This document shows positions 18,819-60,302 of a DNA stretch of 64,000 nt, piece after piece; within the stretch, counting starts at the first letter, position 1, and each line of letters opens with the position of its first letter. Where the stretch lies: the NCBI GenBank assembly GCA_951406725.2, contig OX597831.1:21886001-21950000 (forward strand), written 5' to 3'. Origin of the DNA: Octopus vulgaris (taxonomy: Eukaryota). The notes under the pieces are model-generated. The model had not been told where the DNA came from. It saw only the letters and a list, made by a program, of their open reading frames with translations, and did no database searches. The translations under genes and the position numbers were made by a program.

Positions 18819-18900
<82 letters not shown>

Positions 18901-19200
18901 ATTATAATTATAATTAGAGGCAACGGAGTGGTACCACCAAGCTAGAAATAGCAGTCAAAATCTGACTTTATAACCACATCAAGTCCCGTAAAAATACACC
19001 GGTCCCGTAAAAATATTTGATGTCGCTTTAGAGTCAGTTTTAGACTGCTATTTCTGGGATGGTGGTACCTCTCCGGTACCCTAAATTATAATTATAATTA
19101 TATCATTATATAGCCATAATAATTATTACCTATAAAGTCTTTTTTGTCAATGCTGGCCACTTTATATGAACGGTATTTTAAAATAATGGTCTTATACTCC
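18901..19200 (+). mobile_element. Fold-back element B carrying the GGCUGCU structured motif
   Basis: Imperfect arms 18901-18982/19016-19100; gactgctatttc at 19043; P2 ggtacc/ggtacc 19064-19080; gctggccact at ~19152. Confidence 0.65.
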
Positions 19201-19224
19201 TTATATATAGTCTTTTAGTCTCTT

Positions 19225-23346: not shown

Positions 23347-24435
23347 TTTTAAAATTAAAAATCAAAAATTAAATTTTTTAAATGTATATAGTTATTTACT
23401 TCCATTTGTTTATTTATCTGTGTATTTTATTTTATTATGTTTTCAGATTTGTTTATATTGTAACCAGTTTATGGGGATCCTGTTCTGTCATATGTTGTGG
23501 TGTGTGTGCTAGTGTTCCATTCCAGTTTCCTTTTCAGGCTACGTTTATCTTCTATTATGTGTCGAGCTTCCGTAATTTGTCTGATTGTTGCGTCTGTTCT
23601 ATGTGTGGACAAGATTTTAACTTTTATGTTGTTGATTGAGCCCCCGTGTTCCTGCTCGGTGTGTTGGTATAGAATCGATGAGCTCTTTCCTTCCTTAAGT
23701 TCTCTCCAATGAACATTTATTCGCTCTCCTATGCTTCGTGCCGTTTCCCCTACGTATGTCGTTGTCTTGTTACTGCATCGTCTCTCTATACATCTTATAC
23801 CATAGACTACATTTCTGGCTTTACAGTTTGTTTGTGGGCTAAATCTACACACAGTACAGTACCTATCCGTACAGGGGGTTCTACTAAAAGGGTAGGTTCT
23901 ACCGATTATGGATTTGATAAGGTTGCCTGGCTTTTCAACAAACTTAATCCTTAGCTTAAGTTTGTCTAGGGTCCTTCTAAAGCGGTACGCCACTTCACCT
24001 CTAGGGGTGGTGTCAACGAACATGACACTCTGGTATTTGTGGCTATCATACCAAGAGTTGGTCTTCCCTATTTTCTTTTTTGTCCTTTCCATAGTGTTCC
24101 ATGTCTTGCTCCTATAGAGTGGGCAAATCCCATTCCTATCATTACATAAGATAGTATCAAATTTCTTCACGCCTCGTTTGTATACTCTGATCCTTTCTTT
24201 ATGGCTGTAACCTGAGAACTGCATGCGGTGAACGAAATGTTGTACGTGTCTCTAACTCTGTAGACTCGCACATGCGGGGCACATTCCGCATTATTCTGAC
24301 GAAGTCTGCCATCAAACCTAAGTTTAATGTAAAAAATAAATAACACTAAAGCAAAGTAACATCAAATATATAGTGCGTGTGTTTTTATTGGCTAAACTGG
24401 CAAAATGACCTTTCCGAAATAAATACAACATCATA

Positions 24436-25037: not shown

Positions 25038-25179
25038 AATTATATATAAGGGCGTTTTTTAAGCACCTGCTTTGCTAAAAATAGGAGTCAAAACGTTTAA
25101 TTTTTGTGACTTCAGAATGTTTCGACTCCTACTTTTAGCAGACCAGATGCTTAAAAAAGCGCCGTTATTATATATAATT
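25038..25179. mobile_element. Fold-back element C (truncated member of the GGCUGCU motif family)
   Basis: Arms 25038-25098/25116-25179; ctaaaaataggagtcaaa variant of the motif. Confidence 0.6.
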
Positions 25180-28327: not shown

Positions 28328-28733
28328 CCATTAAGAAACGAGTATCACTGCTCTGTTTCTACGTGGTTCATTCAGCCTGCTAGAAATAACAGCTAATCTT
28401 CTCGCAATCGCACTATTCTCTGAAATATTGTGCAATTCTGATTATCGCGAAGGTCATGGTAGGAATGCTTTTGATGATACAGATGCCCATTCAGTACCCA
28501 TTTAGTGTTCACTTGGGGCTGAATAAAACACAAACAAATACACAAACACTCACAGGTACACACGCACGCGCGCACACATACACAGACACATACACACATG
28601 TACACACATGTACACACACATACACATACACACGCGCAACACATACACACACACACACACACACACAATCATAGCTACACACATACTCACTGGTACACAC
28701 ACACGCGCATCCCCACACACATGCACGCGCAGG

Positions 28734-31415: not shown

Positions 31416-31419
31416 CCTA

Positions 31420-31900
31420 AAAATAAGGCTGTCTGAGAGACACCACCATGCCGAAATAGCAGCCAAATCCCTGACTCTAAAAACCACCTTAAATGTTCAT
31501 ATCGCACCATGGGATAAGACAGAGGGACAAAATAGACTAGCAAAACAGAGATAGGGACGTTCGTATATGTAAGTATAACGTTTGTTCTGTATATATATAT
31601 TTGTATTTATGTGCCCATCTGATATATTCAATTGATGAAGGCAGAGCTTATTTAAAGCAAAGCTAGAAATCCAGGATCTTGTATTATTCAGTAATATCTT
31701 TTTGCTAGTCTATTTTGTCCCTCTGTCTTATCTCATGGTGCGATATGAACATTTAAGGTGGTTTTTAGAGTCAGGGATTTGGCTGCTATTTCGGCATGAT
31801 GGTGTCTCTCAGACACCCTTTTTTTTAGTTGTAAAAAATTATTACCTTTGTATGGTATTTTTTCCCATGCTGGCCACTTGATAATATCGATATTATCCTT
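31420..31900 (+). mobile_element. Fold-back element D carrying the GGCUGCU structured motif
   Basis: Near-identical arms 31427-31545/31700-31818; complete motif 31778-31897; decayed hammerhead words in the spacer. Confidence 0.8.
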
Positions 31901-32124
31901 ATTTATAAATTCATATATATATATATATATATATATGTATATCCGACGCTCTTTCAGTTTTCGTCTCGCAAATCCGCCCACAAGGTTTTGGTCGGCCTGA
32001 GGCTAACAATACGAGACACTTTCCCAATGTGCTATGCTATAGAATTGAACACGGAACCATGTGGCTGGAAAGTAAACTACTTACCGCACACCCAAACCTG
32101 CGCCTACTTCACACGTATTTTTCT

Positions 32125-32545: not shown

Positions 32546-33718
32546 AATAAAATAGAACATATGCATATATATAAACATATATGTACGTACCTACCTCTAC
32601 ATGTACATATACACGCATATATGTGTACAGGACACCAAAAAGACGTCGAACACATAGAGAGACGAAAAACATAGACACAAACCAAGGAACAGGACAAGCA
32701 AAAAAGAAAAAAAGAGATACAGGACAATAAGCACAACGAAAAATCCCCTTCTTCAGTCGCTAAGGTTTCATCTACTCTACGTTTCGAAGGATAAAAGCGA
32801 GACGTATACTTCGAAGAAACTTCCTTCCTGCGAAAAGCAAATCAATTAAAATTCTGAGATCTTTTCGCAGAGGGGTAAAAAATGGTAAAAAAAGCAAGAC
32901 GGTAACGACAGTACAAACATATAAACAGTAAAAAAAAAATTATATATAAACAGTTGAAAAATAAATATATAACAGTGAGAGACAGGACAAGGAGAACAAG
33001 ATAAGAAGGGCTGTTTACGCCAGACGAAAAAAGTAATGCAAACGCTGGATTATAGTGGACGACGAGAGAGAAAGAATGTCGACCAGTGGCCTTAGAAGGC
33101 GGGCGAGAAAAGACAGGATAGCAGTTACGACGGAAGTATCGTCGCAGATGGACGACGGGAATGGGGGAGGAGGAGCAAGAGGAAGAGAGAGAAGAAGGGG
33201 AATGGTGCGAGGAGACCATGAAGAATGGTGAGGGGGAGAGAGAGAATGAAGAATGAGAGAGAGAGGAAGAGACAAGTTAAGTGAGGGAAAAAGGACGAAA
33301 AAGGGAATGGGAGAGAAAGAAAGAAAGATGCAGAGTCGCGTGAGAGTTAATATCAAGGCTAACTTGATAAACAGAACAATCTTACTTAATAGGGTGCGTG
33401 CGTTTAGTCGTATAATATGCTAATAAAATAGAACATATGCATATATATAAACATATATGTACGTACCTACCTCTACATGTACATATACACGCATATATGT
33501 GTACAGGACACCAAAAAGACGTCGAACACATAGAGAGACGAAAAACATAGACACAAACCAAGGAACAGGACAAGCAAAAAAGAAAAAAAGAGATACAGGA
33601 CAATAAGCACAACGAAAAATCCCCTTCTTCAGTCGCTAAGGTTTCATCTACTCTACGTTTCGAAGGATAAAAGCGAGACGTATACTTCGAAGAAACTTCC
33701 TTCCTGCGAAAAGCAAAT
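32545..33718. mobile_element. Non-autonomous element bounded by 298-bp identical direct repeats (element Z as pseudo-LTR)
   Basis: 32545-32842 matches 33421-33718 with no difference seen by eye; purine-rich 578-bp interior; (TA)n flanks. Confidence 0.8.
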
Positions 33719-49223: not shown

Positions 49224-49234
49224 GTAAAATATAT

Positions 49235-49581
49235 AGGGTAGCGAATTGTTTTAGAAATTTCACTACCAGTGGCCTAGCATGTATAAAAAGTCAATAGACA
49301 ACATACTCTCCATATAAAATTAGTGTACATTTAAACACAAAAGAGGCGACCTTTAACAAGCAGCCTTACACGCTAGGAGGAGCAGTCAAAACGACCAAAA
49401 ACACGCTTAAGAATTTGAAACCTAGGTATAGCTGTGAAAAAACAAGGTAAAAGTTCTTATTTTTCATTCCCTTCGAGATTGCTTTTAAATGTGGTTTTGG
49501 TCGTTTTGACAGCTCATTCTAGCGTGTAGGGCTGCCTATTAAAGGTCACCAATTTTGTGTTTTAAATCTACACTAATTTTG
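49235..49581 (-). mobile_element. Fold-back element E carrying the GGCUGCU structured motif
   Basis: Arms 49316-49412/49484-49581; P1 cctagcatgta 49273-49283 / tacacgctagg 49367-49377; P4 49237-49267. Confidence 0.7.
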
Positions 49582-54912: not shown

Positions 54913-55039
54913 ATTTAAGCATAGAAAACATTGGAACTCCCCGGGCTATATACATATGTGTGTATGCGCACGTGTATGTGTGTTTGTGAATTTTAAAGTG
55001 TGTGTATGTATATGTGTATATGTATCTATCTATATATAA

Positions 55040-55395
55040 TTAATAAAAGGGTAAAATTAATTAATTAATTAGCTAGTTGATAATTAATAATTTTACCAAG
55101 TAGATCGGTACGTTAAAATAGACTTTCTAGGTAAAATTATACAAATATTCTATAATTATAAACATAATTATAATTAAGGGTCAGCTATTTGCTTCGCCAC
55201 GTACCGAATTGAGAAATAGGAGCTAAAATTCCTTTTCTACTACCGTAAAGATCTCCCAGACAGTAACACACTTTTTTACGAAAGCAAAAGGAAAAAAATA
55301 ACGAATCCACACCACTCAGATTAGCTACATACGCGTTTCGAGATTAAAGTAAAGTTATATTTACTTACATATTTCTCATCTTCAGAGCAGCATTT
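55040..55395 (-). mobile_element. Element F: hammerhead followed by the GGCUGCU structured motif
   Basis: Hammerhead 55324-55391 then motif 55050-55227, both on the minus strand. Confidence 0.7.
55324..55391 (-). ncRNA. Type I hammerhead ribozyme motif
   Basis: gctgct-CTGAAGA-T-gaga..tctc-GAAAC-GC-GTA-tgtagc; palindromic stem III ACGCGT. Confidence 0.75.
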
Positions 55396-55608
55396 CAAAT
55401 ATAAATTTGAGGGTGCTAGGATTAAATATGTACGCGATCGAGCGCCATCGCATAACTGATATTCAACCAACACTTCCAAAAATATGCGGCCAAATGTGAA
55501 CACATATTTATCCTCAATACCCACGTATGCGTTACGAGCAATCCCGCAAGTCTAATATACTTGTTCAAGGAGTAAATTATAATTTCAATGATTGAATATT
55601 AGGTAGGC

Positions 55609-57594: not shown

Positions 57595-57978
57595 TAAATT
57601 AATCAAAATAAAAACATGATGCCAAGGATTCAGCGGTACATATGTTTCGGGCCTTTATTAGACGGATTTATAACAATGCATAATGTGTGCCTATGGCCTT
57701 CTTCAGCTCATTCTACATCAGCCCATTCTACATTGAGAGAAGGACGAGATGGACACTTCATTTTTGTGCTAGTGCCGCATTATGTCGTACGCGAATGAGA
57801 GGATTTGCATCCCCAACGTAGAATTTTTGATGTAATACATGTCCTTGAGGTAGTAATTGTGCGCGGCTGAAGAAGGCCATAGACACACATTATGCATTGT
57901 TATAAATCCGTCTAATAAAGGCCTGAAACATATGTACCGCTGAATCCTTGGCATCATGTTTTTAGTTTGATTAATTTA
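57595..57978 (+). mobile_element. Fold-back element with 113-bp inverted arms containing a hammerhead
   Basis: 57595-57707 is inverted to 57866-57978. Confidence 0.85.
57863..57940 (+). ncRNA. Type I hammerhead ribozyme, canonical core
   Basis: gcgg-CTGAAGA-aggcc..ggcct-GAAAC-ATAT-GTA-ccgc; palindromic stem III ACATATGT. Confidence 0.85.
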
Positions 57979-58111
57979 TATATATATGTGAGTGTGTGTG
58001 TATATATATATAGAGAGAGAGAGAGATGGAGGGAGATAGTTAGATGCATACATAAAAATATACCAACACATACACAAACACATACACACATACACACACA
58101 CATACACGCCC

Positions 58112-59746: not shown

Positions 59747-59761
59747 TATATAACATACTAT

Positions 59762-60115
59762 ATTTAACAATTAAAGAATGGCCTTAATAGGCCATTCGTC
59801 CACTAGAAAGAGCAGCCAGGACTCAAACCGCTAAGTAGTAGTAATTCAGAAATTAGGTGAAAATTTAAAAACGTTTACCCTAATTCATCTTTAGACGTCT
59901 AAAGATGAATTAGGGTAAACGTTTTTAAATTTTCACCTAATTTCTGAATTACTACTACTTAGCGGTTTGAGTCCTGGCTGCTCTTTCTAGTGGACGAATG
60001 GCCTATTAAGGCCATTCCTTAATTGTTAAATTTATATATTTAGTCTTTGACTATTTTCTCTTTCCCACTAGACCGCTGGTAGCGATAAATGTCTATTGAA
60101 TTTTTTGCTACCCTA
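59762..60115 (+). mobile_element. Fold-back element G: 270-bp loopless palindrome plus complete GGCUGCU structured motif
   Basis: Arms 59762-59896/59897-60031 with one mismatch (59775/60018); motif 59976-60112. Confidence 0.85.
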
Positions 60116-60302
60116 AATTGATTAATATAACATAATCTATGTATTCAAATATATATATAGGTATATATGTGCGTGGTGTGTGTGTGTATGTGCCTGCGTT
60201 CATATGTATGTGTGCTTAACAACATATGCGTATATCTATAGGTTAGTGCAGGTATGATAAATATGGCTAAGAAGCTTGAATTACTTCCGCGTGGTCTTGG
60301 GT

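Follow-up and report, generated by a model that had tools for sequence, protein, structure and literature searches.

In the published record, retrozymes form circles and have been proposed to travel as passengers of Penelope-like elements (PLEs) (PMC7229834; bioRxiv 10.64898/2026.07.22.740005), while PLE insertions are marked by partial tandems, an inverted 5'-truncated copy and a tail at one end (PMC8557442). Minimal PLE hammerheads with a palindromic helix III are described as dimer-acting, with poor cleavage in vitro (PMC4209133). For the Anolis element PAc, reverse transcription starts at two sites that lie 85-92 nt 3' of the hammerhead cut and 111-118 nt into the ORF, the cut itself being at +26; hammerhead mutants of PAc still insert, no RNA reads end at the cut, and for its protein a dimeric form cleaving both strands is predicted (PMC11167929). 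How a PLE chooses its RNA and what causes the inverted arms and the one-sided tail are open questions in the available passages of PMC8557442 and PMC11167929, as is the mobilisation of animal retrozymes in those of PMC7229834.

We analysed a 64,000-nt stretch of the Octopus vulgaris genome (contig OX597831.1, positions 21,886,001 to 21,950,000; hereafter the window), in which at least seven elements (A-F and H) carry a word of the form TTTRRCTSCTATTTCT. We read these repeats, with a probability of roughly 0.7, as non-LTR retrozymes in which the word and a predicted RNA fold would form a handle for a PLE reverse transcriptase (RT)/endonuclease with two start points, the hammerhead being internal and not setting the ends of the DNA copies. 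Like the metazoan non-LTR retrozymes in the available parts of PMC7229834 and bioRxiv 10.64898/2026.07.22.740005, the octopus repeats are built of non-coding units some hundreds of nt long, with a single type I hammerhead per unit, and they occur as solo copies and in tandems, of which partial ones were seen here; PLEs are proposed mobilisers in each case. Unlike those published in these parts, they have a conserved predicted 3' fold, two fixed ends and short/long inverted insertions, and the octopus copies are mostly monomers or partial tandems. With PLE pLTRs and PAc they have in common a minimal hammerhead whose helix III is palindromic and in which A9 is followed by an extra base (PMC11167929, PMC4209133), as well as two start sites downstream of the hammerhead that bound a 'tail' (PMC11167929); AT-rich targets, partial tandems, an inverted 5'-truncated copy and a one-end tail are features of PLEs too (PMC8557442). 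They differ from PLE pLTRs and PAc, as far as the available passages go, in having no ORF, in a tail of ~80-120 nt rather than 30-40 nt (PMC11167929), and in two ends that go with a predicted multibranch fold, the closing helix of which shows covariation between families. The order of hammerhead followed by start site is thus the layout already known from PAc and is not the novelty here.

Folding of one long copy per family gave a common plan that opens with a variable hairpin, its 3' strand in most cases formed by the word. Next, a helix P1 (8-13 bp) encloses a multibranch loop from which two or three small hairpins branch; beyond P1 lie a short linker, P5 as an AT-rich terminal hairpin and, last, a CC-U-rich end. 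Across families, two fixed 3' ends of the DNA copies were found, a short end after hairpin P2 or P3 and a long end after P5, both abutting (TA)n. The features of the word-bearing elements, in window positions, are the following.

55036..55592, minus strand: element F, one full 557-nt non-coding hammerhead repeat monomer from long end to long end, with (TA)n on both flanks
55324..55391, minus strand: type I hammerhead of F, predicted cut 55330/55329, minimal palindromic helix III, extra U after A9
Parts of the F hammerhead, minus strand: stem I 5' strand 55391-55386; core CUGAAGA 55385-55379; GAAA-CGCG-UA 55339-55330; stem I 3' strand 55329-55324
55212..55227, minus strand: word of F
55105..55207, minus strand: predicted multibranch domain of F, closed by P1 (55207-55199 with 55113-55105), with the short end near 55138 inside the domain
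55050..55097, minus strand: terminal hairpin P5 of F, the long end ~10 nt beyond, into (TA)n
31552..31915, plus strand: long arm of element D, of a 485-nt family
31626-31684, plus strand: decayed hammerhead of the D long arm, cut 31678/31679
3' module of the D long arm, plus strand: word 31778-31793; P1 31791-31798 with 31866-31873; P2 31801-31817; P5 31880-31897
31417..31545, minus strand: inverted short arm of D, terminating at the short end
49410..49580, plus strand: short arm of element E, of a 462-nt family, with the word at 49505-49520
49417-49434, plus strand: hammerhead 3' half of the E short arm, cut 49428/49429
49232..49409, minus strand: inverted long arm of E, which includes the tail, P5 and the partner strand of P1
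16000..16300: element A, an inverted insertion whose two arms both bear the word, long arm on the minus and short arm on the plus strand
18900..19205: element B, a decayed two-arm inverted insertion that bears the word; all retrieved copies stop short of a hammerhead
25040..25175: element C, short inverted insertion, each arm stopping near the short end
59759..60125: element H, inverted insertion with arms joined at a 6-nt palindrome (59895-59900), short arm on the minus and long arm on the plus strand

The preliminary description of this DNA had placed a complete type I hammerhead (55391 to 55324) before the motif on the minus strand of F. The placement holds, but the base of stem I is a U.U mismatch, at a position that pairs in 13 of the 15 F-family copies having both cores. 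For D, the proposed decayed words UUGAUGA at 31632 (C3 to U) and GAAA at 31666 were recovered, whereas the GTA at 31681, which had been listed as a third such word, is a mutated portion of the stem I 3' strand; the triplet is AUC at 31676-31678, after the palindromic helix III. The hammerhead 3' half claimed for E was confirmed as GAAA-CCUAGG-UA at 49417-49428, the 5' half being lost at the inversion point in the window copy and present in the E family. Each of the window copies D, E and F has a hammerhead defect. In family D, the hammerhead also has an unpaired base on each side of stem II (after A9 and before G12; window 31660-31669), and its stem I is extended, with an internal loop.

F, D and E are each a copy of a large family of its own (2041, 2611 and 1221 first-look candidates, respectively), and for each family 40 candidates were scored and 30 loci taken by similarity to the window copies. 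The monomers (557 nt for F, 485 nt for D and 462 nt for E) are self-closing and have no ORF. Both hammerhead cores were exact in 15/30 F, 18/30 D and 9/30 E loci, and among these both-core loci stem I was paired 6/6 in 11, 17 and 4, respectively. By their sequences, the D, E and F families have the cores, the NUH site and helices I-III, helix I being open, of type I hammerheads, with predicted cleavage. Rfam matched no hammerhead family to F, and none at gathering score in four loci; over the window, the matches listed (150 of 413) included only microsatellite-driven miRNA matches below gathering score, and the 2.8-Gb host genome is rich in microsatellites. A single PLE protein used as tblastn query found no match in the 90 D/E/F loci, and the RT plus GIY-YIG ORF of an autonomous PLE is not present in the monomers, which likely belong with metazoan non-LTR retrozymes in size and content, being few-hundred-nt, non-coding and equipped with one type I hammerhead. 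Partial tandems spanning the monomer junction were seen among the copies. In addition, contigs of four presumed-RNA runs span most of the D monomer; these carry no end, strand or circle information.

The hammerhead had been said to lie upstream of the motif on the same strand at about 80-100 nt, and in the family monomers the distance from cut to word is indeed 101 nt for F, 99 nt for D and 77 nt for E. The coupling was assessed in an unbiased sample of 140 evenly spaced 10-kb stretches of the genome (1.4 Mb), with a word profile trained on the window copies only (score 16) and a hammerhead descriptor. The profile gave 73 word matches compared with 6 in shuffled DNA, and the strict descriptor 64 hammerheads compared with ~8 in shuffles. 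A strict hammerhead was found 40-200 nt upstream in the sense direction, where the preliminary description had called for a count, in 6/73 word matches and in none in the other three quadrants, while under random placement the count averaged 0.27 and never exceeded 3 in 500 trials; some of the six share a family, so that fewer than six independent events are represented. When one core mismatch was permitted, the counts became 9 (sense-upstream), 1, 0 and 0. We conclude that the coupling between hammerhead and word is real, and the strand call is borne out, as is the position of the hammerhead 5' of the motif on one strand; for F and D the sense strand also folds better than the antisense strand. 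The broader proposal of a two-part mobile RNA with a Penelope/pLTR connection is supported. The link is not general, however: a word was found downstream (78-128 nt) at just 6/60 strict hammerhead sites, the other 54 having none, and 40/73 word matches fall in a hammerhead-less old repeat, family X. The two modules are therefore separable.

At window 57595-57980, an inverted two-arm insertion of another hammerhead family was observed, with intact-looking cores and a long and a short arm, and without the word; relatives of it occur at two other loci, L189 and L101.

We were interested in whether the fold downstream of the word is a conserved RNA structure. Over 17 families, which were selected by eye for tail completeness while P1 energies were visible, and were aligned in a register fixed on one G-C pair, an 8-bp P1 was paired in 127/136 cells; shuffling of partners (n=5000) gave 109.9 on average and at most 122. 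Seven of its eight pairs change on both sides, the eighth being the anchor G-C pair, and the duplex of each strand with its own partner had a mean energy of -12.5 kcal/mol, against -7.5 kcal/mol across families (0/20000 permutations). These families are kin, with a median identity of 0.50 (range 0.35-0.92). When the MAFFT alignment of 10 families was left as produced, 94.9% of P1 cells were paired, a level attained in 0/500 shuffles and compared with 11-44% in slid registers; four pairs change on both sides in this alignment, which 33/500 shuffles attain. RNAalifold predicted no pair from the 17-family MAFFT alignment, where P1 is split by an alignment gap, and the seven A/F-type families alone showed no pairing excess over shuffles, F being out of register there. 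P1 covaries across the 17 families as a predicted RNA helix, and hairpin P5 was predicted in 16/17 of them. No Rfam family matches the predicted fold, one exact A/F-type motif pattern had no match in metagenome contigs, and two 15-mers used as text matched no papers. Among the papers searched, we found none describing an RNA module that covaries between families and brackets the two start sites of a PLE, though supplements may hold related consensus sequences.

The 3' ends of the copies were mapped with a motif-only 71-nt query, which returned 30 family-D matches from 28 insertions. Twelve of the 30 ended at +44 to +56 from the word, directly after P2, and 16 at +146 to +153, directly after P5, with two elsewhere; most ran into (TA)n. 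Among inverted insertions, one short arm was combined with one long arm in 31 of 34 classifiable cases (17/18 for D, p=7e-5 against 50:50; 8/8 for E; 6/8 for F), a count that leaves out 9 unclassifiable insertions of D, 1 of E and 5 of F. Of the window elements, A, B, D, E and H obey this rule and C, with both arms short, breaks it. The marks of PLE-type insertion, namely 5' truncation, partial tandem, inverted 5' copy, one-end tail and (TA)n target, are all present. Outside the window, at L314/L315, a family-A inverted insertion has two long arms whose tails differ after the short end, which suggests two templates or a template switch.

An alternative account of the arrangement is that its order was merely inherited from one pLTR or retrozyme ancestor, hammerhead and word being mere neighbours and the word a conserved remnant. 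In its favour, the families do have common ancestry, 54 of 60 strict hammerheads come without a word, the word stands without a hammerhead in family X, and the spacer length ranges over 77-128 nt. Against this, the word, P1 pairing and P5 are retained with compensatory changes at ~50% identity, and the insertion ends hold their position relative to all three. We regard mere inheritance as unlikely, since the retention of word, P1, P5 and end positions at such divergence calls for selection on the 3' module, though it calls for none on the link with the hammerhead. Many divergent passenger families hold a small common predicted fold, natural compensatory changes and two mapped start sites, so that mutant and rescue versions already exist in nature for testing in a priming assay like that available for PAc in vitro.

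It is also conceivable that the word is a DNA element, a promoter or host-factor site driving the next tandem monomer, and no RNA handle at all. The word is conserved as sequence while its own base pairing varies among families, it recurs in the unrelated-looking old repeat X, and pLTRs are reported to hold promoters in the available text of PMC11167929. Nevertheless, the word abuts the RNA-covarying helix P1 and is positioned relative to the ends of reverse transcription, and it is not found in the conserved upstream block of five U2 snRNA genes of the genome, so that a role as snRNA promoter (PSE) was rejected for U2. We consider a DNA element quite improbable.

The preliminary description had further assigned one end of the mobile RNA to the hammerhead and the other to the fold. 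The second half of this assignment stands, with the amendment that the fold is associated with two 3' ends, but a hammerhead-defined end of the DNA copies does not. The 5' ends of the 30 D matches scatter from -450 to -30; the cut, at -99, has no 5' end closer than 10 nt, and 21 of the matches read through it. In the pooled D, E and F arms (n=69, only those not selected by a hammerhead-containing query), the end is within 10 nt of the cut in 4; another 32 continue through the cut site, and the remaining 33 stop downstream of it. Although fixed order and narrow spacing, one sampled copy (L251) that begins at the cut and a slight surplus of D arms with ends 3-21 nt past it would fit a mobile unit made of the piece between a hammerhead-cut end and a motif-set end, this least probable of the accounts is largely refuted for DNA copies by these read-through counts, by copies that cross the monomer junction and by window copy F, a whole monomer with an internal hammerhead and ~260 nt further upstream of the cut. 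The surplus itself is weak (7/48 D arms), and a minor route via a cleaved template may exist beside the major one. The hammerhead is thus internal to the unit that is copied and sets no boundary of the DNA copies, and because copies cross both the cut site and the monomer junction, we infer that the template was an uncleaved multimer or circle.

In the preferred reading of the repeats as retrozymes with a PLE handle, a PLE-type RT/endonuclease would bind the word and the predicted fold and start copying at two fixed points. A cut in (TA)n would provide two DNA 3' ends, one priming at the short end and the other at the long end. The resulting cDNAs would then join head to head, or one would run on alone; if each DNA strand of a single (TA)n break used one of the ends, two-armed insertions would follow. 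As in other retrozymes, the role of the hammerhead would be to process multimers into monomers or circles, and given its palindromic helix III it probably acts as a dimer. For insertion it may be dispensable, by analogy with Anolis PAc in vitro. We would go further only tentatively, to a P1 fold that serves as a twin-priming platform, on which the short-end and long-end starts would lie next to each other and a dimeric PLE enzyme would prime both strands of one (TA)n break from one RNA; we hold this to be possible, with the odds somewhat against it. If true, it would explain the PLE 'tail' and the inverted pLTRs, and the handle kept by many divergent retrozyme families would be a portable signal for PLE insertion.

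Frames of PLEs, the putative partners, are common in the genome, with 9472 and 17640 first-look candidates for two queries. A young Hydra-like PLE elsewhere in the genome (L308:887-3223, plus strand) has an open 778-aa frame, and the endonuclease is 95-99% identical among copies. It carries an RWL motif and, like the Hydra-clade PLEs of PMC8557442, the motifs DKT and CxxC/CxH, and it has a hammerhead, (TA)n ends and two ends ~150 nt apart; Pfam gave no match for the whole protein. A word-like 15-mer lies 30-35 nt after the cut, with the short end ~20 nt past this site. In Hydra-like pLTRs the gapped match to the 15-mer, a pattern chosen post hoc, was equalled in 2/5940 shuffled tiles. In contrast to the retrozymes, P1 and P5 are absent from this element in their retrozyme form, and 0/34 whole-region alignments of the Hydra-like family with the 17 families beat the shuffle maximum. 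No autonomous element with full word, P1 and P5 was found. The Hydra-like element is a candidate partner only.

The window itself contains a C-terminal PLE fragment with a GIY-YIG domain (23472-24251, minus strand, pLTR to ~22730). The pLTR hammerhead of its family reads CUGAUGC (A9 to C) in most copies seen, and CUGAUGA in L094 and L152. The word is absent from this family and from the other PLE 3' regions among those listed.

The other word-bearing elements of the window were compared with relatives elsewhere. Decayed hammerhead words are present upstream in a relative of element A (L201) and in two relatives of element C, whose long 'perfect stem' was rejected as a fold because it is an inverted arm. 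The arm junction palindrome of H (window 59885-59910) resembles a hammerhead helix III with its cut site, and palindromic microhomology may account for inversions near the cut without cleavage.

Family X, an old repeat of ~250 nt, has one copy in the window (28356-28551, minus strand). A (GTT)n run lies on one side of the repeat, which has a long hairpin and bears the word close to its opposite end; its profile gave 125 matches in the 1.4-Mb sample (L121-L260). No hammerhead was found in 40 word matches of the family, no P1 partner strand in 85 copies and a TA end in 2 of 85, no tRNA was found in its profile, and a search of text passages and four of five supplements of PMC4758252 did not identify it. 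Family X and one retrozyme family agree at 28/31 nt. At L155:4286-4570 and in L171, units of ~105 nt from the word-bearing end of X form a short tandem array. Besides, the window contains a duplicate of more than 200 nt with 100% identity at 32583-32842 and 33459-33718, 876 nt apart.
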